Source of the DNA: a bacterium
Lineage (GTDB): Bacteria; SAR324; XYD2-FULL-50-16
Length of the DNA stretch: 64,000 nucleotides
Reading direction: 5' to 3'
NCBI GenBank assembly: GCA_032250835.1
Contig: JAVVEA010000007.1
Span: 80,487-144,486, forward strand
Shown here one piece after another: positions 3,077-51,481 of this stretch. The position numbers were made by a program, and so were the translations under genes. Every line of letters begins with the position of its first letter. Position 1 is the first letter of the stretch. The notes beneath the pieces are model-generated. The model did not search any database and had not been told where the DNA came from. It saw only the letters and a program-made list of their open reading frames with translations.

Positions 3077-3696
3077 GTCCGAAACACCGCCTTGACGATG
3101 CCTTGGATGCTCACTTCGTTAGCGTCTACATAGATGGGCTTCATATTTTGGTTGGCCGGTTGCAGGCGGATTTGGCGGCCTTCGCGGTAGAAACGTTTGA
3201 CTGTGGCTTCCTTAAAATGCAGCATGGCGATCACCAGATCCCCGTTGTCCGCCACTTCGCGCTTTTCGACGACCACATAATCACCGTCCAAAATTGCTTC
3301 GTCGATCATCGAATCTCCCCGCACCCGCAGCAAATAACTACGGTCTGGCCGCTGCACCATCGATTCAGGCAGGGTCATGAACTCGTTTTCCGTAAAGTGC
3401 TCAATCGGCAGGCCCGCCGCCACACTACCCAAGAGCGGCAATTCCACCACCGCAGGTTGCGTCAGCGGAGCCACCGGGGTTGGTTCGCCCTTAAGTACGC
3501 GGATCGAGCGGGAGACATTGGGGTCTAAAGAGATGTACTCTTTCTCGACCAAGTTCTTCAGGTGTTTGTGCACCCCGCCAGCGCTGGCCAGATCAAAATG
3601 GGCGGCAATATCGCGCACCGAAGGGGGGTAGTGGTGGTCTTCGATATATTCACGGATATAATCGAAGATGGCCTCTTGTTTACGGGTCAACGACAT
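3070..3696 (-). CDS. lexA: SOS repressor LexA
   Basis: N-terminal wHTH (PPSVRDIA), VAAG cleavage site, GDSM catalytic Ser, TVKR catalytic Lys. Confidence 0.95.
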   Translation of the reverse strand: MSLTRKQEAIFDYIREYIEDHHYPPSVRDIAAHFDLASAGGVHKHLKNLVEKEYISLDPNVSRSIRVLKGEPTPVAPLTQPAVVELPLLGSVAAGLPIEHFTENEFMTLPESMVQRPDRSYLLRVRGDSMIDEAILDGDYVVVEKREVADNGDLVIAMLHFKEATVKRFYREGRQIRLQPANQNMKPIYVDANEVSIQGIVKAVFRTY

Positions 3697-19037: not shown

Positions 19038-19541
19038 ATGGAAGATACTGTCGATCTCGAACGCCTTAAGGGCTTTTCGCTCTTCGCCGACCTCGCTGAA
19101 CAGCCCGAACGGTTGGCCGTGGTGTCCCAATACTTAGCACCCCGCCGCTTTTTGGCCGGAGAATACATATTCCACGAAGGGGATATGGGCGATGAGTTGT
19201 TTTTATTGGTCCAAGGCGCGGTGCGGGTCCTTAAGCTGACCAAACAAAAAGAAGAATACACCATCGTTGACCTACAGGCGAGTTATCAGGTTTTTTTTGG
19301 CGAGATCGCCCTGATGGACTCGGACAAGCGTTCGGCCAGTATTCAGGTCCTAGAAGACTGTCTGACTTATGTAATCAACCGAGATGCTTTTGTGGAACTG
19401 GGCAACAAACACCCGGAGATCGCCCTGCCGATCACCCGCGTGATCGCAGGCATCCTCTGTGGCCGTTTGCGCAACGTCAATAATGACGTGATCATGCTCT
19501 TTGATGCGTTGGTCAACGAGATTGAAACAACTCAGCTTTAA
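19038..19541 (+). CDS. Stand-alone cyclic-nucleotide-binding domain protein
   Basis: IFHEGDMGDELFLLVQGAV and FFGEIALMDSDKRSAS; no HTH. Confidence 0.9.
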   Translation: MEDTVDLERLKGFSLFADLAEQPERLAVVSQYLAPRRFLAGEYIFHEGDMGDELFLLVQGAVRVLKLTKQKEEYTIVDLQASYQVFFGEIALMDSDKRSASIQVLEDCLTYVINRDAFVELGNKHPEIALPITRVIAGILCGRLRNVNNDVIMLFDALVNEIETTQL

Positions 19542-30224: not shown

Positions 30225-31073
30225 ATGTCCTGGTTCAAACGAATCGCGCCCAAACTACTGCCGACCGACAACAAAAAGAATATCCCCGCCGGGGTTTGGA
30301 TCAAGTGTCCCGAATGCGGCGAGACCCTATACTCCAAAGAGTTGGAGAAAAACGACAAGGTCTGCCTCAACTGCGAATACCACTTCCGCCTCACTGCCGA
30401 AGAACGCATTAGCTTGATGTTAGACGAGGGGAGCTTTGAAGAACTCTTTATGGGCATCCTGCCCAAAGACCCCTTAAAGTTCTCGGACAGCAAAAAATAT
30501 AAAGACCGGATCAAGGCGGCCAACAGCAAGACCAAGCTCGAAGAAGCGGTTACCTGTGGTCAGGGCCGGATGGAAGGCCAACCGGTGATGCTGGGCGTCT
30601 TTAACTTCCGCTATATGGGCGGGTCCATGGGTTCTGTGGTGGGCGAGAAGCTGACCCGGTTGATTGAAGAGGGGCTCAAACGCCGCACCCCAGTGATCAT
30701 CATTTCCGCTTCCGGCGGTGCGCGGATGCAGGAAGGCGCCCTGTCGCTGATGCAGATGGGCAAGACCTCGGCGGCGCTGATGAAGCTACAAAAAGCGGGC
30801 GTCCCCTACATCTCTGTGATGACCGACCCCACCACCGGCGGCGTCTCGGCTAGTTTCGCCATGTTAGGCGACGTGAACATCGCCGAGAAAGGTGCCTTGA
30901 TTGGCTTTGCCGGTCCCAGGGTAATCCAACAAACCATGGGAAAGCCCCTGCCCCAAGGGTTCCAACGGGCCGAGTTTTTGTTGGAGCACGGCGCGGTGGA
31001 CATGGTCTTGGACCGACGCGAAATGAAAACCCGCATTGCCGGGTTGCTTTCGATCCTTTTGCCTCAAAATTAA
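30225..31073 (+). CDS. accD: Acetyl-CoA carboxylase carboxyltransferase beta subunit
   Basis: WIKCPEC...VCLNC zinc ribbon, [30 protein letters not shown]. Confidence 0.97.
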
Positions 31074-31116
31074 ATCCTGGGGGCGACGGCCCCTATTTTC
31101 CTCTGGGTTGTCGAAC

Positions 31117-32205
31117 ATGTCTAAAGTCGCGCTGATCACCGGGGTCACCGGTCAGGACGGGGCCTATTTGGCCGAATTGTTGCTAGAAAAGGGCTATGAG
31201 GTCCACGGCCTCAAGCGCCGCGCCTCCTCCTTCAACACCGACCGGATCGACCATCTCTACCAGGACCCCCACGCCAACCAGCGCAAGTTCATCTTACATT
31301 ACGGCGACCTAACCGACTCGACCAACCTGATCCGCTTGGTCCAAGAAATCCAGCCGGACGAGATTTACAACTTAGCCGCCCAGAGCCACGTGGCGGTCTC
31401 CTTTGAGACGCCCGAATACACCGCCAACGCCGATGCCATCGGCACCTTGCGCTTGTTAGAGGCGATCCGGGTTTTAGGCTTAGAGAAAAAGACCCGCTTT
31501 TATCAGGCCAGCACCTCGGAGCTTTACGGCGAAGTGGCCGAAACGCCGCAGCGCGAAACCACGCCCTTCCACCCCCGTTCTCCTTATGGCGTAGCCAAGC
31601 TCTATGGTTACTGGATCACCGTCAACTACCGCGAAGCCTACGGCCTGTTCGCCTGCAACGGGATTTTGTTTAACCATGAATCCCCCCGGCGCGGTGAAAC
31701 CTTTGTGACCCGCAAGATCACCCGCGCTTTGGCGCGCATCCACTTAGGGCTAGAAGACTGCCTCTATCTGGGCAACATGGACGCCAAGCGCGACTGGGGC
31801 CATGCTAAGGACTACGTAGAGGCCATGTGGCGGATGTTGCAACAAGACCAACCCGACGACTTTGTGGTCGCCACGGGGGTGCAGTATTCGGTGCGGCAGT
31901 TTGTTGAAGCCGCCGCCAAGAAGTTGGGTTGGGTGATCCGCTGGGAAGGGAGCGGTGAACAGGAACGGGCGATCCGCCAAGAAAATGACCAAGTGGTGGT
32001 CCAAGTAGACCCCCGCTATTACCGCCCCGCCGAGGTGGAAACCCTTTTGGGCGATCCGGCCAAAGCCAAGGCCATATTGGGCTGGGAGCCGAAGATCGGC
32101 TTTGACCAATTGGTCACCGAGATGGTGACCGAGGATTTGAGGATTGCCCAAAAAGAGCAGCACATCACCCAAGGCGGCTTCGACGCTTACAGCCCGCACG
32201 AATAG
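31117..32205 (+). CDS. gmd: GDP-mannose 4,6-dehydratase
   Basis: [56 protein letters not shown]. Confidence 0.97.
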
Positions 32206-32410
32206 GGGCGGGTTCGCCTTCGCGGAGACAACAGCCCCTCTTTCCAGGCTCAATGGAAGCCCAGAGTTATTGGAAGAATTGAAAAGAAGGGACTTCTTTC
32301 TTTGGCTCGCAAAGAAACGAGCCCTCGCCTTCGCGCCTAAGACCGCCAACGCCTCACTCGCAAGAGTGAACCCAAAAGCCCTACACCGCAAGCGTCGGGT
32401 TTCCGCTGCA
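32206..32410. repeat. Multi-hairpin REP/MITE-like non-coding element
   Basis: Direct repeat TCGCCTTCGCG (32214, 32325); hairpins TTTCTTTG-GCTCG-CAAAGAAA (32297-32317) and TCACTC-GCAA-GAGTGA (32354-32369). Confidence 0.45.
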
Positions 32411-32411
32411 C

Positions 32412-32498
32412 AATAGGTATACTGTCCCCTGATTCCATAAAAATAGGTATACTGTCCCCTGATCCCCCGATTCTGATTCTTCTGATTTTGTCCTCTGA
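32412..32498. repeat. Left cassette-end motifs: two exact 22-bp copies of AATAGGTATACTGTCCCCTGAT plus CTGATTTTGTCCTCTGA
   Basis: Copies at 32412-32433 and 32442-32463 (30-bp period); 17-mer at 32482-32498. Confidence 0.85.
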
Positions 32499-32501
32499 AT
32501 T

Positions 32502-32624
32502 TTTAATCGCCTCCAAGGCCACTTTGGCCTTGAATTCTTTGCTGAAATTCTGCCGTTTCATGACACTCCGTTTTTTGGTTCGGCTCTATCTTAACAAGTT
32601 GTCCAGTTTCTGGGGTCCACTATA
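32502..32624 (-). mobile_element. IS3-family remnant: left end plus first ~20 codons of OrfA
   Basis: End TATAGTGGACCCCAGAAACTGGACA, GGAG RBS, MKRQNFSKEFKAKVALEAIK; then truncated. Confidence 0.75.
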
Positions 32625-32634
32625 GTCCACTATA

Positions 32635-35178
32635 TTATTTCTTGCGTAAATTACTAAGTTCATAGTTGTGTGACCAAATTCTCCAGCCAGAAATTCCTAC
32701 AACCTTCAAAAAGGCGAGTTCAACCTTAATTGGCTTACCTTTCGTTGATTCGTCTATTTCCTTGTCATCAAATTGAAAAAGGTGGGCACTTGTCTCCGAG
32801 TTTATCCGATACACGACAAATATTTCTTCATTCCTATTTTTTACTATGCTTCCTATCTGGATGTTTTGCTTTTTAGATATTTTTTCAAAAGGCAGCAGAG
32901 TGCAAAATTCAATACTCCACTGCTTGATTTTTTCTAACCAAGGACCAAATTCTTCAGATTCATAGTTTCCTTTCACTGAATCCAGGTATTCTTCAATTCG
33001 TGGGTGACAATTCAACCATGGAACAAGCGATAGCAGAACAGCGTGATCAAACAACTCTGCTTCTTCAATTTCCTCCGTGTCCCACCCAGAGTACTCCCGA
33101 TTTTTGACATCGACTTCCCAAGCTAAACAGAGCAATGCTGGGACTAGAAAATACAATTCATCTGGCAAACTATCGTTACCGTCCACGATTTTTTTGAAAC
33201 GCCAGTTACCTGACCTCGAGAACAAGTATTGTATGGCTACACTCAGCAACTCCTTCTGCTGCTCAAAAATATCAAGTTTTGGGTCATCTATAAAGCTTCG
33301 TTGCAGCGTAGCGCGTGAAAGCAGGTGAGCTGCACAGGCCAATATTCCTGCATACCTCTCAACAGTAACGATGTCTTGGTCAGGGTTTTTAAATAAGTTA
33401 GTTTTCAAGCTCCGTACGATATAAGTCGCTTTGTTTGATAGTTGCTCCCGTAGTTGCGTATCGACGGGCTCTAAATCGATTTCATCTGAATCCTCATGTT
33501 TCGTTAAAGCGAGTAATTCCTCCTCATCTACCTCTTGGATTTTAGGTTCAATCTTTCGGTCAGTTAAAAACAGACGAGGTAACATTTCCAAGAGACTTCC
33601 TAAATCACCATGACGAAGATGATTGATGTGGTTGTGACTATCTGGACTTATCTCGTCTTGATAGAAAATTTCCATCGAAGCGGTTTGAACGGGATTTTGC
33701 TTCGGACTTTGACTTGAGGCAGAGTTAGCTTGAGGGCCGCTTTTTATTAGTTTTTGAAACAGATCAAACAAAGGTTGGGGGCTATCTTCACCTAGAAAAA
33801 TTCCTTTGAGTAAACTTTGAATTTTTTTCTCTTGATCTGACATACTTAGGTTTTGTATGTGCCTTACCTCGATCAAAAGCAGTTGCAGGCTTTCTGACTC
33901 AGCGTTGCTGAGTCTAGCGCGTTTCCAGGAAGAGTACGGGATGCCTTCCACACGAAAATGTAGCCTGTCATCCACCAACTCAGATTCAGAAATGAGGAAA
34001 AGTTGATTATCCCATTCGTCCAGCAACTCCAACTTAGAGCCATTTTGCCAAGACTTAGGCACGTTCAGCACACGCAGTTCACCGCCCTCCCTTTGCGCCC
34101 ATAAAAGGCCTCCTGTTGAGCCACTGTCGGCTGTGGGGTTATTCTTCCTCACTTGCGCTCTTTGTGTCGCTGAAAGCTCTGGGCAATCAAATAAATCGTT
34201 TAGCTTCAATTTGTCAGCGAGTTGCTTAGCTAATTCACCCTCATGGACAACGACCGCTTCAGCGTTTCTACCGCCCGTATTAGCTAGCCACGCTGCCGCG
34301 CTTGCATTTGCACTACCGCTAATCAGGAGGTCTTCGTCGTGAGTTGATTGAAAATAAAAAAACTTTGCGTGTTTGAAACAGTTTATTGCCGTATCCCGTA
34401 AATCCACATTATTGGCATCGACAAACATCACCCCATCAGCATCGATTTCATCTACGTCCACTTCACAGACCTCTGGGTCAATCGCCACCGTAAGAGGGCA
34501 TTTGAATTTTTCTCGCAATTGTTTGAGGAATTCTAGATTGCGGTCAAAATATGGGCTAAACACCAAAATCCGGCTGCATTGGAGATTTCTATCCGCCAAA
34601 ACCTGATTCCAAAGGCTAGGGCCATCTGGAGTCGAGTAATAAAAAGGGGGAGATTGATCGGAAAGCAAGTTGGACGCTTGCGGCATTTGCCCCCAAAACT
34701 CGGTCAAAGCGTTTTGTATTGGCAGGGGAATATCGGATTGTAACATCCAAGATTCAGCTAGATTTTGAACATGACCAATGAGTTGTTGGGCAATCGGTTG
34801 ATCGGAAAGTTCAGTGAAAGAGCTTGAAACTTCCAAGTTATGCCCGTATCCCGAAAAGGTTAGGTTATGGCTACCCACATGCAATCGAGTTTGTTTTTTC
34901 CCAAAAAGAAATAGGAGCTTTGGGTGGAAGCTTTGAGCGCAATCGACCGGAATCAATAAATACTCTTTTCCTGCAAGGGTAGGTGCCTGATCTGGATCGG
35001 CTAAAGCCTTAACCAGCTGCCGCCGGTCCATCAGCAATACATTAAACAAGCACCCGCGTCGCTGCAAGCGCTTCAAAATAAAGCGTTCGTAAAAAGGGAA
35101 ATATACGTTGAAGCTAGTTATTAAAGACGATTGGAACGCATGTTCTTCTAGTGATTTAATCAAGGATAGTTCATTCAT
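32635..35178 (-). CDS. Phospholipase D-superfamily (nuclease-like) protein, 847 aa; putative defence effector
   Basis: Two motifs FHPKLL...VGSHNLT and KHAKFF...SGSANAS in the N-terminal ~330 aa; unrecognised C-terminal half; AT-rich. Confidence 0.8.
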   Translation of the reverse strand: MNELSLIKSLEEHAFQSSLITSFNVYFPFYERFILKRLQRRGCLFNVLLMDRRQLVKALADPDQAPTLAGKEYLLIPVDCAQSFHPKLLFLFGKKQTRLHVGSHNLTFSGYGHNLEVSSSFTELSDQPIAQQLIGHVQNLAESWMLQSDIPLPIQNALTEFWGQMPQASNLLSDQSPPFYYSTPDGPSLWNQVLADRNLQCSRILVFSPYFDRNLEFLKQLREKFKCPLTVAIDPEVCEVDVDEIDADGVMFVDANNVDLRDTAINCFKHAKFFYFQSTHDEDLLISGSANASAAAWLANTGGRNAEAVVVHEGELAKQLADKLKLNDLFDCPELSATQRAQVRKNNPTADSGSTGGLLWAQREGGELRVLNVPKSWQNGSKLELLDEWDNQLFLISESELVDDRLHFRVEGIPYSSWKRARLSNAESESLQLLLIEVRHIQNLSMSDQEKKIQSLLKGIFLGEDSPQPLFDLFQKLIKSGPQANSASSQSPKQNPVQTASMEIFYQDEISPDSHNHINHLRHGDLGSLLEMLPRLFLTDRKIEPKIQEVDEEELLALTKHEDSDEIDLEPVDTQLREQLSNKATYIVRSLKTNLFKNPDQDIVTVERYAGILACAAHLLSRATLQRSFIDDPKLDIFEQQKELLSVAIQYLFSRSGNWRFKKIVDGNDSLPDELYFLVPALLCLAWEVDVKNREYSGWDTEEIEEAELFDHAVLLSLVPWLNCHPRIEEYLDSVKGNYESEEFGPWLEKIKQWSIEFCTLLPFEKISKKQNIQIGSIVKNRNEEIFVVYRINSETSAHLFQFDDKEIDESTKGKPIKVELAFLKVVGISGWRIWSHNYELSNLRKK

Positions 35179-36826
35179 TTCGCCATTTTGATAGAATTTG
35201 CTCCGCAGCTAGGGAGATACCAATCATTTGATCACTATTCGTCTCAATCAAACCTAAATCCACTAAAAATTGGCGGGATGGCTCAAAGCGAGGATTGGTA
35301 AAGACCGGGGTAGGTATGCGATCAACGTCAACCAGCAGCCCGAATTCCGTAGGCTTTAAACGGAAGGTATCTTGTCCGTATTGGGCCATTTTGATTAAAG
35401 CTACTTGAAGATGGCAATCTAAGGTCCACCTCGTCAGCAATTCTTTTACCACTTGTTGAAATGTCATTGCAGCCCAATCAACAAATACCAATTTAAGAAA
35501 ATTTCCTAAACTTAAGCTGTATGACCTCCGGTCTTCTAAGCTAAATTGGCTGTCTGCAGGAAGGTTTGTGCTGTTATTCTGCTTTGCCCTGATAGCAATA
35601 GCTAACAACAAATCCAAAGCGGTCTCTAATAGTTGTTCTAACTCCAGATTGCTAGTTAACTCTATCGCCAATTGACACTCATGATTTTTAGCTTGCCATT
35701 CCAGAAGGCCTGGAAGGGTCGGTTCCTCTTCCTCCAAGATCAATGAGAAGGATTTCTGGTCAATATCCTCATACAGTTCTTGCCAGATTTCCTGAGTAAA
35801 CAGCCACTCTGCAAACTGACCGCTATTGCTAAATCGAACGCCTTCGCTTGAGACTGAATCTATGGCGCTTAAAGCAAACTGAAATAGCCCCTGCATTGCC
35901 ATTGCCAGAAGCTCTGACTGCTCGTATAGCGCCCAACCTTCTCGAATTCGTTCCAACGACGATGGAAGATTCCAAGGCTGTTGATCCTGTGTCGCATTGG
36001 CATAACATTGAGCACGAAATGCAAGGGAGGCTAAATTTGGATTTTCGACTTTCGTAGCGCCATCGATCCAGTGGAGGATCAAGCTGAGAGAGGCAGGTCG
36101 GTAGCCCGCGAATGACTTCGCTGAGCTGGCAGTGGTAGCAAAGAGAAGATTAGTTAGCTGCTTTTGCTCAGATGCGCTTTGACGCAGTTGGCAGAAACAG
36201 AAGCTAGCAAGCTGATCTAACCGGTTCAGGTCAAATTCGTCTTTATTAAGTGTCTGGAAAAATAATTCCGAACTTTCATCCGAAGCAAAGCTTTTTGCTA
36301 ACGGGGAAATATTGGAAACAACGCACTTTAGCTTTTTCAGGTCCCCTTCAAAAAAGCCATAGGAAGCAAGTGTAGAAAAGTAATACTGCCCCAACCCGCC
36401 TTTGAGATTCTGAAAATAAGACTTTTCTGCTTTCGGGTCAGCAAAGTGACTCAAGCGCAATGTGTGGTCGCTATCTAACGCATTCAGAGCTGGCCCTAAG
36501 GTATTACTCCCAACCATCGCTTTGATATGCTGCGAAGGAGCAGGTCCGTTACCTGTATGATTATGCCTGTGCGCGATCAGTGTTAAAAGGCATTCAGCAC
36601 GCCGGAGGAAGGTGATCACCTGCGTGTCATCAAGTGCAAACCTTTCGCATGTATGAAATGTATGAAAAAACCAGGGATAAAAAGAGTAATAGCGTAACCG
36701 TTCAGTTACGTTTGTTATGCCAGGGAGGAGTTCGGCATACAAAGCTTTATTGGGAGCTTGCACGCCCAAGTGGTCCAGCCCACCCTTTTCGTACATTGGT
36801 TTTGTCCAGAAAGTATCTTGGTTCAT
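35171..36826 (-). CDS. Hypothetical 551-aa partner of the PLD protein (N-terminus reminiscent of DUF6361-like proteins)
   Basis: GLDHLG...LLPGITNVTERLRYYSFYPW, GGLGQYY, C-terminal FTNPR...FLVDLGLI; 8-bp overlap with the PLD gene. Confidence 0.75.
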   Translation of the reverse strand: MNQDTFWTKPMYEKGGLDHLGVQAPNKALYAELLPGITNVTERLRYYSFYPWFFHTFHTCERFALDDTQVITFLRRAECLLTLIAHRHNHTGNGPAPSQHIKAMVGSNTLGPALNALDSDHTLRLSHFADPKAEKSYFQNLKGGLGQYYFSTLASYGFFEGDLKKLKCVVSNISPLAKSFASDESSELFFQTLNKDEFDLNRLDQLASFCFCQLRQSASEQKQLTNLLFATTASSAKSFAGYRPASLSLILHWIDGATKVENPNLASLAFRAQCYANATQDQQPWNLPSSLERIREGWALYEQSELLAMAMQGLFQFALSAIDSVSSEGVRFSNSGQFAEWLFTQEIWQELYEDIDQKSFSLILEEEEPTLPGLLEWQAKNHECQLAIELTSNLELEQLLETALDLLLAIAIRAKQNNSTNLPADSQFSLEDRRSYSLSLGNFLKLVFVDWAAMTFQQVVKELLTRWTLDCHLQVALIKMAQYGQDTFRLKPTEFGLLVDVDRIPTPVFTNPRFEPSRQFLVDLGLIETNSDQMIGISLAAEQILSKWRNE

Positions 36827-36918
36827 TTTTTCAGACCATATTAATTATTCAATGTTCCACCACGTACTTAGCAGTTTACCTGGAAATTTTCAATTTTAAC
36901 CGCAAATATACGATATAT

Positions 36919-37053
36919 TATAGTGGACCAACCTTTTAAGAACGTTCCCTAGGCGCTCCCTTGTCTGAAGGCAAACACCCATCTCACTCTGCGGCCCAAT
37001 GCCCCTCGTTCGAAAATCAGGGGACAAAATCAGGTGGCAGTATACCGATTTTT
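36919..37053. repeat. Right cassette-end motifs, inverted relative to the left end
   Basis: TATAGTGGACC (36919-36929); TCAGGGGACAAAATCAG (37017-37033, 16/17 to left 17-mer); ATCAGGTGGCAGTATACCGATT (37029-37050, 19/22 to left 22-mer). Confidence 0.8.
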
Positions 37054-37197
37054 GCTCAAATCCAGCGAATTGCGCTGTCATTGAAATCAGGGATTCTGTC
37101 ATCTGATTTATTTAATCTTTATCGACCTAATTAGGTTCGCCCCAACAAGCGGATGCAGCAGTGCTTGGGGGTGTAAAAAAGACAACCTAAGAACCCC

Positions 37198-38118
37198 CTA
37201 CCGCTCCGTCAGCTTCAGCGGCAAGTCTTCGTGCACGCCGCGGTTGGCGTAGCCTTTCCAGGCGGCGACGTCCAGCTTCTGGCCTTGATTCCAGTAGGCT
37301 AGCATCTTCTCGGGGTCTAAGGCTCCGGCCTTATTGGCGAACTCCTGCTGCACCTTGTTGTAAGGCACGTTGACCTGTCGGGAGGTGGCGTAGGCGACGC
37401 CCGCGCGGTCGGCGAAGAGGGGCCAGAAGATTTGTAGGCCGTGTTCTAGGCTGTTGGGGGCCTTGAAGGGGATCATCCGGCATTGGGCCAAAAACTCACG
37501 GGTATCAAAAATATGGCCGTCTACCGAAAGGGGGTAACCCCAGTCATATTCCCCTTGCCGCCAACGCCAGCGGATAAAGCCACCCTCTTCTTGCAAGGGG
37601 GGCCGCTGCATGGGCAAACCCAACATATAATGGAAGTCCAACTGGGCCCCATGGCGCAGGCTGAAGACGGCCTCCTTGGGGTCCTGCTTCAGGGCCTCGG
37701 TGAAGTCGAATTCTTGGGTGAAGAGGATGTCATCGACCAAAAAGAAGACCCGCGTTGCCTCAAGGGCCGCCAAGAGGTCCAAAAGATCGCTACGGAAGGC
37801 GTATTCCTCCACAAAGGTCACCGGCCAATCCTTACAAAGCCGCCTAACCTCGGCGTAGGCTCCTTGGTGGGCTTTGCTAGAGGCGCGGAAAAGGACGCTC
37901 AAGGGGGCGGGGTCTTGGGCCTGCAAAAAATAAGACTCTAAAAGCGCGAAGAGCTGCAAGGCGCGGTCAAAACTAAAAACCACCCCGGCCAGCGCGTTGG
38001 GGCGCGGGGCCGAGTCGCGCGCCAATTGGACCTGGACCATCTGTTTCAGCTGGGAAGTCCGCCAAGGCAGGTTCAACTGCCCGGCCAAGCGCAGGTGACG
38101 CAACCAACGCCGGATCAT
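37198..38118 (-). CDS. Putative GT-A fold glycosyltransferase-like protein
   Basis: VFSFDRALQL, FFLVDDILF, WGYPLSVDGHIF, PNSLE; glycan-locus context. Confidence 0.6.
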   Translation of the reverse strand: MIRRWLRHLRLAGQLNLPWRTSQLKQMVQVQLARDSAPRPNALAGVVFSFDRALQLFALLESYFLQAQDPAPLSVLFRASSKAHQGAYAEVRRLCKDWPVTFVEEYAFRSDLLDLLAALEATRVFFLVDDILFTQEFDFTEALKQDPKEAVFSLRHGAQLDFHYMLGLPMQRPPLQEEGGFIRWRWRQGEYDWGYPLSVDGHIFDTREFLAQCRMIPFKAPNSLEHGLQIFWPLFADRAGVAYATSRQVNVPYNKVQQEFANKAGALDPEKMLAYWNQGQKLDVAAWKGYANRGVHEDLPLKLTER

Positions 38119-48317: not shown

Positions 48318-49624
48318 ATCAGCCTGCCTCGCGTCTCAAAGAAGTAGAACAGCTAGCTGCCCGCTACCCCAGCCTCCCCAAGGAAGCGATCCTCAAACAA
48401 GATATGTTGCGTTTGGGCGTGGGTTTTAGCGAAGATTCGTTGCGTATTGCCGCAGGCTTTAAGCCCAAGGATTATTTTATCTTCAGCTTCGACTTGGCGA
48501 CTTTAGAAGAGTTAGAAGCTGCCGGTGAGCATTTATTGCGGGCCCCCGAAGAGGTGCGGTTTTTTGGCGGTTCTTGGGGCTTAGCACCGACCATTTTCAA
48601 CGTCCGCTTGGCCCCCAAAAGCCCTTATCAGGTGGGGCTAGAGAACGGAAAACTGACCATTTCTTGTGGAGGCGAGATCTTCGCCGAAGCGGAATACCAT
48701 CCGGTGCCGCCCTTTTACAGCGAGGCGTTGCCTTCCGGTAAAAGCATCAACGAGACCGCGCCGGTCTTGGAATGGGGCTATTTGATTTACCTGACCGTCT
48801 ACCGGCTCTGCCAATATTGGGGCAAAGACGAGGAGTGCCAGTTCTGCGACATCAACGAGAACTACCGCCAGCAAAAGAAGGCAGGCCGGGAGTATACTGG
48901 GATCAAAAACCCTCAAGACATCTTGGATGCGCTGGACGCGATCAACCGCTTAGATACCCAAAAGACCACCCAGGCGATCACCTTGACTGGCGGCAGCATC
49001 ACCGGCCAGCTTTCGGGGCAAGACGAATTGGCCTTTTACCTGAGCTACGCCAAGGCCATTTATGAGCGTTTTGGGGAGCGGTGGATTTTAAAGGCGGTGG
49101 TCGAGGCCTTTGAAAAAGAGGCCTGCCAGCGGCTTTATGACGAAGGCGGGGTGCGGATCTACCACCCCAATTACGAAGTCTGGGACCCAGATTTATTTAA
49201 GCAGCTTTGCCCCGGCAAGGAACGGTTTGTGGGCTACAACCGCTGGATGCGCCGCATCTTGGAGTCCGCCGAGGTCTTTGGGCCCGAACGGGTGATCCCT
49301 AACTTTGTGGGCGGGGTCGAGATGGCGCAGCCCTACGGCTTTACGGACCCGATCCAGGCGGTGGAAAGTACGGTGGGAGGCCTGGAATACTTCATGAGCC
49401 GGGGCATCATGCCCCGTTTCACCACTTGGTGCCCCGAACCCTTGAGCTTTATCGGCAACCAACCGGCCCCGCCGCTGGAATACTTTGTTCATTTGCTTTA
49501 CCGGTTCCGCGAGACGGTGGACAAATATGGGCTGAAGGCCCCGCCGGGCTACGGCAAGCCGGGCGTGGGCCATGCGGTCTTTTCGGTTAGCGCCTTTATG
49601 GATGTGCTTAAGGCTGAAGACTAA
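48314..49624 (+). CDS. Radical SAM protein with non-canonical CX8CX2C motif
   Basis: CQYWGKDEECQFC, ITLTGG, NYEVWD, VGGVE. Confidence 0.8.
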   Translation: MNQPASRLKEVEQLAARYPSLPKEAILKQDMLRLGVGFSEDSLRIAAGFKPKDYFIFSFDLATLEELEAAGEHLLRAPEEVRFFGGSWGLAPTIFNVRLAPKSPYQVGLENGKLTISCGGEIFAEAEYHPVPPFYSEALPSGKSINETAPVLEWGYLIYLTVYRLCQYWGKDEECQFCDINENYRQQKKAGREYTGIKNPQDILDALDAINRLDTQKTTQAITLTGGSITGQLSGQDELAFYLSYAKAIYERFGERWILKAVVEAFEKEACQRLYDEGGVRIYHPNYEVWDPDLFKQLCPGKERFVGYNRWMRRILESAEVFGPERVIPNFVGGVEMAQPYGFTDPIQAVESTVGGLEYFMSRGIMPRFTTWCPEPLSFIGNQPAPPLEYFVHLLYRFRETVDKYGLKAPPGYGKPGVGHAVFSVSAFMDVLKAED

Positions 49625-49643
49625 CGATAAAACGTCTAAATTC

Positions 49644-50519
49644 ATGAACATTGAACCAGACAAGATACTTTATCAGTTGCCTGTAGAGGAATCGGCGATA
49701 TTTGTAGGCGATGCACTCCAAGTATTAAGCAGGTTGCCTGCCGAATCCGTACAAGCCGTAATCACCTCCCCTCCCTATTGGGGCTTAAGGGACTATGGGA
49801 TTGAGGGTCAAATTGGTCTTGAGCCCTCGCTCCCTGAATTTTTGCAACATTTGGTATCGGTCTTTGATGAGGTATATCGAGTCCTAAAACAAGATGGCTC
49901 CCTTTGGCTAAATATTGGTGATGGATACACCAGCGGAAATCGCGGGTACAGAGCGCCGGATAAAAAAAATTCGGCCCGTGCTATGTCCGTGCGTCCAGAC
50001 ACACCAGAGGGACTGAAACCAAAAGATTTAGTTGGTATACCTTGGAAACTTGCCTTTGCTTTGCAAGAAAGCGGCTGGTATCTACGCTCAGACATTGTTT
50101 GGAACAAACCCAATGCAATGCCGGAGAGTGTGCGAGACCGCCCCACAAAATCACATGAGTATTTGTTTTTGTTAACCAAGTCGGAAAAATATTTCTATAA
50201 CGGTGGGGCTATCAAAGAAGTTGGCACAAACGGTATTTTACGCAACCGGCGGACTGTTTGGCATGTTAACACGCAAGCCTTTGCGATGGCGCACTTTGCC
50301 ACCTTTCCTGTTTCGCTAATTGAACCCTGTATCCTAGCTTCCACGGAACCCGGTCAAATCATATTGGACCCATTTTTTGGGGCGGGCACCGTCGGCCTTG
50401 CAGCCGAAAGCTACCAACGTAAATACATTGGGATTGAACTCAATCCAGAGTATGTAGAAATGGCTGCAACCCGGTTGGAACCAAACCGGCCACAAATCTA
50501 TCACACCACCCTTCGATGA
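49644..50519 (+). CDS. Type II DNA methyltransferase (N4-cytosine, beta class)
   Basis: TSPPY catalytic motif precedes the DPFFGAGT SAM motif; HFATFP; GIELNPEY. Confidence 0.92.
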   Translation: MNIEPDKILYQLPVEESAIFVGDALQVLSRLPAESVQAVITSPPYWGLRDYGIEGQIGLEPSLPEFLQHLVSVFDEVYRVLKQDGSLWLNIGDGYTSGNRGYRAPDKKNSARAMSVRPDTPEGLKPKDLVGIPWKLAFALQESGWYLRSDIVWNKPNAMPESVRDRPTKSHEYLFLLTKSEKYFYNGGAIKEVGTNGILRNRRTVWHVNTQAFAMAHFATFPVSLIEPCILASTEPGQIILDPFFGAGTVGLAAESYQRKYIGIELNPEYVEMAATRLEPNRPQIYHTTLR

Positions 50520-51481
50520 ACCATTTTAATATCCCCATGCCGGAGCAACAGGTTTCCTTTGCCCACAGCTTAGAATCAATAAAATCTAAATTTCTTGGGC
50601 AAGCCCTTGCGGACGCCGTAGAACAATCTGACTTAGAGGTGATCAATAACGACCTCAAGCTTTATGCACCGGCAAACTCGTTAAAGACCCTTGCTAGCTT
50701 GGGCATTCGAGGTGAAATTGTATTTCCCACCCCCTGTATCCTGAAACACAATCCCCACCTACTGGCATACTACCGACTTTTGTTAGGCTATTCGCAAAAA
50801 GCTTTCTATTCTGCTCATTATGGCCTTTCCGGGTTCAAAGTTTTAGAAGACAAAGGCAGGCTCAGCTCGAAACTCGAAGCGAAACTCCCGCCCTTGTGCG
50901 AAAGTCTTTCACAATGTTCCGCCTTTTTACTCAACAACTTGCAAGATCAATTCAGCCTTAAGCTTGTAGAAGAACTGGTTTTGCTAACCCTTGGGCCGCA
51001 ACTAAGGGGAGGAGCGAATGTTAAAAAGGGAGAGGAAGGCATCCAACGAGTATTTGAACTGATCAAAATGATTGTCGCAGATGCGATCGTTGATAGTAGC
51101 GACAAAAGGATTAAAATAAGGAATGCGGCGAACCGAATGGTTCTCCTAGAATTTGCCGCTGACCCAGATATTGTGGTCAGAGAACCGCATGCAGGAGGCC
51201 GAAACATTCTTGCGATTGAAGTCAAAGGTGGAACCGACTTTTCAAACATCCACAATCGCCTCGGAGAAGCAGAAAAAAGCCACCAGAAAGCCAAGCAAAA
51301 CGGTTATATTGAGTGTTGGACTATTGTAAACGTGGATAAAACCAACCTTGAGATGGCAAAAAAAGAATCCCCGACTAGCAATCAGTTTTTTGTTTTGTCC
51401 GAAATCACGGACCCAGCCCATGAAGAGTTCCACCGGTTTCGTAACAACCTTACCTCCTTAACCAGCATCCATTCGAAATAA
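50516..51481 (+). CDS. Type II restriction endonuclease, XcyI/Cfr9I/XmaI-like family
   Basis: YYRLLLGYSQK, GPQLRGG.N, FAADPDI, AIEVKGGTD.SNIHNR.GEAEKSH; ATGA overlap with the MTase. Confidence 0.8.
   Translation: MNHFNIPMPEQQVSFAHSLESIKSKFLGQALADAVEQSDLEVINNDLKLYAPANSLKTLASLGIRGEIVFPTPCILKHNPHLLAYYRLLLGYSQKAFYSAHYGLSGFKVLEDKGRLSSKLEAKLPPLCESLSQCSAFLLNNLQDQFSLKLVEELVLLTLGPQLRGGANVKKGEEGIQRVFELIKMIVADAIVDSSDKRIKIRNAANRMVLLEFAADPDIVVREPHAGGRNILAIEVKGGTDFSNIHNRLGEAEKSHQKAKQNGYIECWTIVNVDKTNLEMAKKESPTSNQFFVLSEITDPAHEEFHRFRNNLTSLTSIHSK

Follow-up and report, generated by a model that had tools for sequence, protein, structure and literature searches.

The 64,000-nucleotide (nt) stretch analysed here (the window) belongs to contig JAVVEA010000007.1 (positions 80,487 to 144,486; assembly GCA_032250835.1) of a bacterium of the SAR324 lineage. 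It carries on its minus strand two adjacent genes, A (P0001) and B (P0002), which an original prediction made from the sequence had put forward as a candidate anti-phage system. On balance, we favour the view that the pair is a self-contained, mobile two-gene module directed against phages or other mobile DNA, related to the Azaca system and independent of a helicase. A function in phage defence is probable from the genomic setting of the family and from remote homology to defence proteins. Protein B belongs to the phospholipase D (PLD) superfamily and A is its predicted binding partner.

The two proteins and their predicted complex

The two genes are translationally coupled, as had been proposed: the TGA stop codon of A (35171-35173) lies just inside B, whose ATG start codon is at 35176-35178 (junction ...cgaaATGAATGAac), and the genes thus overlap by 8 nt (ATGAATGA). 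Overlaps of 4-14 nt were found in 70 of the 75 related loci with both genes clustered (8 nt in 41, 11 nt in 23).

Protein B is assigned to the PLD (HKD) superfamily from its two HxK...GSxN half-sites and its PLD fold. PLDc_2 was the sole Pfam family reported for it (E-value (E) 2.5e-8; 34.3 bits against a cut-off of 27). The half-sites, which read FHPK...VGSHN and HAK...GSAN in context, hold His, Lys, Gly, Ser and Asn at positions that are invariant across 27 homologues (H85/K87/N105 and H270/K272/N291), and the canonical Asp of HxK(x)4D is missing from both, in line with the original prediction: the residues four beyond each Lys are F92 and Q277. This HKN form lacking the Asp is a Tdp1-type variant. 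Tdp1 was also the first fold match of B, its best-matching part being residues 1-351, both by Foldseek (1q32_C, E 8.7e-9) and by the program VIA (1mu7_A; Z 23.2, root-mean-square deviation 3.7, 319 residues aligned), and like B it has two HxK...N motifs without Asp in one chain. Next by VIA were a bacterial PLD (Z 20.6), human PLD4 (Z 20.6) and vaccinia F13 (Z 20.3). The PLD restriction enzymes SauUSI (Z 10.1), NgoAVII (Z 8.9) and BfiI (Z 8.8) align with one lobe of B.

A first place for Tdp1 in two programs, together with its motif form, would also suit a role outside defence, either in Tdp1-like DNA repair or end processing (3' adducts, covalent protein-DNA links) or as a lipid PLD carried as accessory cargo, and the copy in the window does lie amid glycan and envelope genes. 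Such a role is very improbable given that the sequence matches are to the defence nucleases ZacB, PDC-M27B, DrmC, PbeA and DpdK, not to repair or lipid enzymes, that the family is sporadic, plasmid-borne and did not turn up in a search of 40 relatives of the window genome, and that defence genes figure strongly among its neighbours. The models of A and B show no evident signal peptide or membrane segment. The fold itself does not decide between a lipid and a Tdp1-like substrate, since lipid PLDs and Tdp1 lie within ~3 Z units of each other. Moreover, Tdp1 is a eukaryotic repair enzyme with 12-14% identity to B, which has no partner and none of the C-terminal domains of B, and its substrate preference cannot be transferred to B on the fold alone.

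Beyond residue ~345 of B no Pfam, NCBIfam or PADLOC match was obtained, which agrees with the motif-free tail of ~500 amino acids (aa) noted from the sequence. The AlphaFold2 (AF2) model of B has an overall predicted local distance difference test (pLDDT) value of 70; it places two further domains in this tail (Table 1), with residues 481-572 disordered and a small beta unit at 776-800. A helicase hidden in the tail was considered and rejected, as no ATPase/RecA fold appears in the AF2 model or in the VIA and Foldseek lists.

Protein A starts with GGLDHLG...LLPGITNVTERLRYYSFYPW, the best-conserved block of its family in the alignment; the pattern D.LG...LPGI...T.R.RY...W, on which the original prediction had relied, is present there as described. 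Many invariant polar residues are spread over the full length of the protein. Its AF2 model (pLDDT 83.1, pTM 0.85) is nearly all helical and ends in helix/hairpin units. Neither Pfam nor NCBIfam has a family for A, and Foldseek of the model against the PDB gave no match at E<=0.001. A VIA-wide fold search listed winged-helix proteins (PadR, Z 7.1; WRN RQC, Z 6.5; MarR types), the recognition part of the nickase N.BspD6I (Z 6.6, 211 aligned) and BrxA (Z 5.7), all in the Z range (5-7) that the program calls common. The Atlas structure search returned BpuJI_N, FokI/AlwI-type and double winged-helix clusters, with TM below 0.3, and the nearest named Atlas feature cluster was DUF6361 (0.81), to be taken as a lead only.

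The complex of full-length A with B residues 1-445 was modelled in three runs, with alignments of our own and three controls. The interface score ipSAE was 0.82 (0.80-0.83 among the runs), against 0.00 for the best of the three controls; 116 of the 157 solved complexes attain this mark, as do 2 of the 215 mismatched pairs, counts that apply approximately because our own alignments were used. The runs share at least 90% of their contacts, and the pLDDT of the partners is at least 83. In the model, A residues 1-11, which are disordered in the monomer, form a strand that pairs with B 115-120, and A 333-336 and 465-498 contact B at about 104-105, 260-271, 285-287 and 310-324; A therefore sits beside the catalytic His270 and Asn105. 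Several residues in or near this predicted interface are invariant, namely W7 (T5 and V8 being nearly so) and F488 of A (whose helix also carries H472 and K479), and H104, N105, G110, N114, E116 and H270 of B. A contact between the two proteins beside the catalytic cleft of B is thus strongly predicted.

We infer both the substrate of the B nuclease and the recognition or regulatory role of A, and the mechanism that we propose runs as follows. B would be the effector: a single-chain PLD phosphodiesterase with a Tdp1-type HKN/HKN site, most likely cutting nucleic acid. A, co-produced with B by translational coupling, would bind it directly, its N-terminal strand adding onto the B loop 107-123 and its winged-helix-like C-terminal region lying beside the catalytic cleft. 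There A would probably provide DNA recognition, or restrain the nuclease until foreign, possibly modified, DNA is met, or both, and the A-B complex would then degrade the DNA of the invader.

An interface that places A at H104, N105 and H270 of B could also belong to a toxin-antitoxin or abortive-infection system, in which A covers the cleft of B until infection removes or degrades A, so that host and phage nucleic acid are destroyed and the cell dies. Such a system would still serve defence, through suicide of the cell in place of selective restriction. The 8-nt overlap would then serve stoichiometric co-translation, with the putative antidote upstream, and a costly B would be expected to be lost, as seen in five loci (L015, L039, L050, L051 and L066) where a broken B stands beside an A of intact length; a repeat flanking the pair also flanks toxin-antitoxin genes in the window genome. 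We consider this rather unlikely. A is large (551 aa) and has its invariant polar residues throughout, unlike a simple antitoxin; locus L063 combines a broken A with a full-length B, which would not be tolerable if B were lethal; and the interface model is compatible with occlusion and with completion of a substrate cleft alike.

Distribution and defence neighbourhoods of the family

A word-indexed search identified 514 homologues of A (~550 aa) and 102 of B (~850 aa). All of the former are annotated as 'hypothetical'; among the latter one is named 'phospholipase D family protein' and the rest are nearly all unnamed or hypothetical. A profile of A matched 2211 clusters (50% identity) at E<=1e-3, 568 of them at E<=1e-30. 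In a set of 80 related loci from species-representative genomes, a homologue of B lies immediately downstream of A in 79, so the expected co-occurrence of the two genes was borne out; in the remaining locus, L078, A is truncated. Conservation does not extend to a third gene: when all neighbours were clustered, no cluster exceeded 18 of the 80 loci. The related loci come from Pseudomonadota, Myxococcota, Acidobacteriota, Desulfobacterota, Gemmatimonadota, Planctomycetota, Actinomycetota and Spirochaetota, and the family is known from at least ten phyla and from conjugative plasmids.

The pair is horizontally acquired and mobile, to judge from a low-GC patch, a sporadic distribution, plasmid copies and broken copies. 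The GC (guanine plus cytosine) fraction is 0.39-0.47 over 32300-37100 and 0.57-0.61 on both sides, which confirms the AT-richer insertion between gmd and glycan genes described earlier. Searches of 40 relatives of the window genome, none of them from the same genus, did not find A. It occurs on 12 plasmid records, nine of them conjugative or mobilizable, and the versions on plasmids of Polaromonas, Roseovarius and Myroides, at 26-34% identity, retain a pair of ~520-540 aa and ~830 aa; the Polaromonas copy adjoins Zorya, the Roseovarius copy a type I restriction-modification (RM) system, and the Myroides copy is set in the order hsdM-hsdS-A-B-hsdR. A or B is broken in seven of the 80 loci, which comprise L078 and the six named above. 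A phage origin of A was also considered and set aside, tblastn having given no match to A in 50,697 phage records.

The neighbourhoods of the homologues, whose inspection had been recommended with the original prediction, are rich in defence genes. Among the nearest-neighbour proteins, 41 of 124 (from 33 of 64 loci, 19 of 143 candidates having been left out by size) have a PADLOC match at E<=1e-10, compared with 17 of 82 distal genes of the same loci and three of the 47 open reading frames (ORFs) of the window. The matches include type I RM, CBASS, Thoeris ThsB, Hma, Druantia DruE, BREX PglW, AbiE, type IV restriction endonuclease, Dsr1 and AriA/Old-like proteins, and further recurrent neighbours are WYL, AAA_15/21, PIN, a Pycsar cyclase with a TIR effector, SAVED-HNH, DUF4357 and HNH proteins. 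The family is usually housed in broad defence islands.

Two of these associations recur. Any of HsdR, HsdM and HsdS was found within 10 kb of the pair in 21 of the 80 loci, in some of them in the order hsdM-hsdS-A-B-hsdR (A-B lies between hsdS and hsdR in L012, L043, L056 and on the Myroides plasmid), and a DrmMI-like (Eco57I/MmeI-type) methylase together with a DrmD/DpdE-like helicase in 11 of the 80. They could mean that the pair is a non-autonomous accessory nuclease, a plug-in to RM or DISARM-like systems for which a superfamily 2 (SF2) translocase acting in trans (HsdR or a DrmD/DpdE-like protein) takes the place of the Azaca helicase ZacC. Cleavage by Azaca depends on its helicase (bioRxiv 10.1101/2025.07.10.664194), 17 of the 27 B proteins match DrmC weakly, and HsdR-like ORFs are present on other contigs of the window genome. 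Against this, 48 of the 80 loci have neither type I RM nor DrmD/DrmMI-like genes within 10 kb, the window has neither, and the presence of the pair is not tracked by that of any helicase gene. It is well established that type I RM loci host unrelated defence genes, and adjacency to them therefore need not mean cooperation. Dependence on such a helicase is, in our estimation, improbable, and autonomous action of the pair is preferred.

In the 11 loci with DrmD/DrmMI-like genes (L010, L025, L026, L031, L037, L059, L060, L068, L069, L073 and L074), these form a block upstream of the pair, composed of the SNF2 helicase (~600-975 aa), the methylase (~1250-1600 aa) and an HNH_2 protein, often with a 660-690-aa protein lacking a Pfam family. 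No match to DrmA or DrmB was found among the neighbours scanned, and the block has the look of a DISARM-related or type-ISP-like system lacking these two proteins.

Relation to Azaca and other named systems

Azaca, the system made up of ZacA, ZacB and ZacC, is said to go back to Millman et al. in 2022. A 2025 preprint assigns ZacA to DUF6361, ZacB to the PLD nucleases and ZacC to the SF2 helicases; the system protects strongly against T4, cleavage of T4 DNA in vitro needs all three proteins and the Walker A motif of ZacC, and no change in vitro followed from mutating conserved residues of ZacA (bioRxiv 10.1101/2025.07.10.664194). The ZacB profile of PADLOC (PDLC03829) matches B at E 1.3e-15 within the PLD domain only, the best stretch being residues 199-324 on profile positions 224-346 of 586, and across the family it matches all 27 B proteins (best E 4.3e-19). 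The ZacA profile (PDLC03828) matches A at E 3.8e-4 (residues 13-78 on positions 27-89 of 396), and 21 of 23 A proteins, in each case weakly and at the N-terminus (best E 9.5e-6). The earlier comparison of A with the DUF6361-like protein of Azaca is supported by this N-terminal likeness to ZacA, but membership of Pfam DUF6361 itself, a family found in the literature only in connection with Azaca, is not supported.

With Azaca the pair shares the PLD nuclease subunit, the ZacA-type N-terminal block, the order of partner gene before PLD gene, and a defence context. It differs in several respects: there is no ZacC SF2 helicase, either in the window or as a conserved gene in the 80 loci; A has 551 aa against the 396 positions of the ZacA profile, to which it aligns at positions 27-89 only; and B has 847 aa against 586 positions for ZacB, with a different tail of ~500 aa. 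A search of the window genome with the ZacC profile, for which the control was positive in six of 14 genomes, gave weak generic helicase matches only, on another contig (E 1e-8). Judged from these profiles, the pair is related to the ZacA/ZacB core, yet it is not an Azaca member because the helicase is missing. The undescribed helicase-less relative that had been suggested as one possibility therefore agrees well with the matches of the ZacA and ZacB profiles, with the constancy of the pair and with the lack of a conserved helicase.

The other possibility that had been raised, an Aditi-like two-gene system (DitA/DitB), was rejected: at E<=1 the PADLOC scan of A and B returned ZacA, ZacB, PDC-M27B, PbeA and DrmC (the last two weak) and no Aditi protein. 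We assume that PADLOC-DB v2 includes models for Aditi. PDC-M27, a candidate of PADLOC-DB v2.0.0 that is apparently two-component (A and B models), resembles B in the PLD domain: the PDC-M27B profile matches residues 84-227 on positions 108-235 of 635 (E 4.7e-15), a domain-level match that extends to all 27 B proteins. It does not share the partner, as PDC-M27A (460 positions) gave no match for P0001 at E<=1. PDC-M27A was likewise not found in the window genome or in five other pair-carrying records, in a search whose control was also silent and whose sensitivity at the genome level is unproven. The identity of the pair with PDC-M27 was rejected because PDC-M27A was not found; no mention of PDC-M27 was met in the literature. 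Other PADLOC matches among the 27 B proteins are the weak ones to DrmC in 17, and those to PbeA in 15 and DpdK in 11. No name for the pair was found in PADLOC-DB 2.0.0, Pfam or NCBIfam, nor did literature searches return one.

DrmC of DISARM is also a PLD nuclease, a small one, within a helicase/methylase defence system, and its weak matches to B and the DrmD/DrmMI-like genes beside some pairs recall it. The NCBIfam model DISARM_DrmC_I, however, scores 14.1 bits on B against a cut-off of 133, and DrmC profiles have ~236-265 positions and no ZacA-like partner. The PLD restriction enzymes (SauUSI of type IV, BfiI and the R-protein of NgoAVII) resemble the pair in joining a nuclease of PLD fold to a separate DNA-recognition part, and the siting of A-B beside type I RM is like that of many type IV enzymes. 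They have one HKD half-site per chain and act as dimers, whereas a single chain of B contains the two half-sites, as in Tdp1 and PLD3/4. SauUSI has an ATPase/helicase domain and B has none, nor is a cognate methylase conserved alongside A-B.

The one hint that the pair may cleave DNA in a modification-dependent, type IV-like manner is the preference of Azaca for T4 DNA. A more far-reaching reading can be offered tentatively: A and B may be the founding members of a large family, as yet without a name, of defence nucleases that need no helicase, in which a ZacA-like winged-helix subunit reads the incoming DNA (for instance its base modification) and gates a Tdp1-like PLD site. The siting in type I RM and DrmD/DrmMI-like operons might then mark a second-line, modification-dependent nuclease against phages that escape methylation-based restriction.

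Setting, flanking repeats and implications

On one side, the pair is flanked by accD (30225-31073) and gmd (31036-32205), both on the plus strand. On the other follow a 306-aa protein of no named family, a DUF268-like protein, a polysaccharide flippase, a GT10 fucosyltransferase and a MoxR/DUF58/VWA operon. Within 10 kb of the pair, the window encodes no helicase, methylase or ATPase, in agreement with the original prediction. Neither Pfam nor PADLOC assigned a family to the 306-aa protein encoded next to the low-GC island (37198-38118, minus strand), and its gene did not turn up in the search of 40 relatives, so the surrounding glycan locus, too, is variable. Apart from the pair, the PADLOC scan of the 47 window ORFs gave one clear defence system, a type II RM pair on the plus strand (methyltransferase MTase_II at 49572-50519, E 7.7e-129; endonuclease REase_II at 50516-51481, E 1.1e-96), and one weak TIR-effector match to a 167-aa ORF (19038-19541, plus strand; E 4.4e-11). 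No tRNA genes or Rfam elements were found at the borders of the island, and a scan for promoters and terminators gave counts not above those of shuffled controls.

Table 1. Features of the A-B pair and its borders (window coordinates)
Feature	Position	Strand	Basis and remarks
Gene A (P0001), 551 aa	35171..36826	-	ORF and translation; all-helical ZacA-like partner, C-terminus winged-helix-like
A residues 1-11 (MNQDTFWTKPM), predicted strand pairing with B 115-120	36794..36826	-	Interface list; lowest-error pairs of the complex model
A residues 13-78, N-terminal motif block GGLDHLG...LPGITNVT.R.RYYSFYPW	36593..36790	-	Sole part matching the ZacA profile
A/B stop/start overlap ATGAATGA (translational coupling)	35171..35178	-	Junction sequence
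Gene B (P0002), 847 aa	32635..35178	-	ORF and translation; double-HKN PLD-superfamily phosphodiesterase, long C-terminal extension
B residues 1-345, two-lobed PLD catalytic domain, Tdp1-like	34144..35178	-	AF2 pLDDT ~85-92; fold searches
First half-site H85-P-K87...G102-S-H-N105, no Asp	34864..34926	-	Read from translation; invariant in 27 sequences
Second half-site H270-A-K272...G288-S-A-N291, no Asp	34306..34371	-	Read from translation; invariant in 27 sequences
B residues 355-440, beta-sandwich-like middle domain	33859..34116	-	AF2 strands pLDDT 87-91; fold matches middling, Z ~7
B residues 573-760, helical C-terminal domain after linker 481-572	32899..33462	-	AF2; VIA alpha-solenoid-type matches only, Z<8
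Two tandem 26-nt repeat copies (core GGTATACTGTCCCCTGAT), inward-pointing, 3' side of pair	32412-32436, 32442-32466	+	
Inverted repeat copy, inward-pointing, ~200 nt upstream of A start codon	37029-37053	-	
Weaker outward repeat copy	37086-37110	+	
74-codon ORF between B stop and repeats	32337..32561	-	First ~20 residues OrfA-like; frame runs into repeat copies

The island is bordered by copies of a repeat with a consensus of about AAAAT.GGTATACTGTCACCTGATTT, the conservation of which is limited to ~26 nt. It is dispersed throughout the genome, with 31 matches at <=2 mismatches against one for the reversed control, and often two copies face each other at a distance of 1-5 kb, with accessory genes between them (a 455-aa TIR protein on contig C14, HicB, CopG, ParE, PIN). 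A transposon bounded by this repeat and carrying the pair was considered and set aside, because the repeat is short and is dispersed beside many unrelated small genes. A 219-aa IS200-like Y1 transposase of the window genome (C43:2516-3175; Pfam Y1_Tnp, E 6.5e-11) has copies of the repeat facing outward on its two sides, at C43:2443-2460 (minus strand) and 3174-3191 (plus strand). Outward-facing repeats around a transposase are the arrangement known for repetitive extragenic palindromes (REP) and REP-associated tyrosine transposases (RAYT), and the repeat may therefore be of a REP/RAYT-like family. A small single-HKD PLD (Nuc-like, ~184-189 aa; PLDc_2, E 4.2e-24) at C39:77612-78166 (minus strand) adjoins another copy (C39:77565-77582).

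The 74-codon ORF next to the repeats is probably a remnant, as suggested by its start, which we take to resemble the N-terminus of an IS3-type OrfA transposase; tblastn gave a weak match (E 0.082) to an OrfA-like ORF at C11:463-410 of the window genome. A second short inverted pair (core GTCCACTATA) lies just inside the ends of the island at 32625-32641 (plus strand) and 36912-36928 (minus strand). Its right-hand copy contains TATAAT ~90 nt upstream of the start of A, which the promoter scan did not list on the coding strand.

Several observations weigh against a helicase-independent, Azaca-related defence module. The likeness of A to ZacA is weak and covers ~65 residues only, and the Pfam family DUF6361 (PF19888) gave no match for P0001 and reached one of the 23 A proteins, at E 0.092. 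A helicase-less relative may cut DNA differently from Azaca, because Azaca cleavage in vitro needs all three proteins and the Walker A motif of ZacC, according to the preprint. The resemblance of A to winged-helix and type IIS recognition domains is middling (Z 6-7; TM <0.3), and the score of the complex is a model confidence, obtained with our own alignments for B 1-445. Identity to the query is ~35% among A homologues and ~25% among those of B, so that A is the more conserved, not the usual pattern for a sensor that evolves fast. The neighbourhood comparison was made against distal genes and the window ORFs in place of a genome-wide background, and 21% of the distal control genes still gave matches. 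Finally, the copy in the window is an exception to the habit of the family because it is placed in a glycan locus: its immediate neighbours are sugar and glycan genes, and the nearest defence match is the type II RM pair ~13 kb away.

If the pair does protect against phages, it would be a widespread two-gene addition to the defence catalogue. It would then also follow that the ZacA/ZacB core of Azaca is able to work without a helicase, which bears on the role of ZacA. The predicted clamp around a Tdp1-type site, formed by the N-terminal strand of A and its C-terminal winged helix, is a concrete hypothesis, and the recurrence of hsdM-hsdS-A-B-hsdR is a natural setting for the question of whether type I restriction and a PLD nuclease cooperate.

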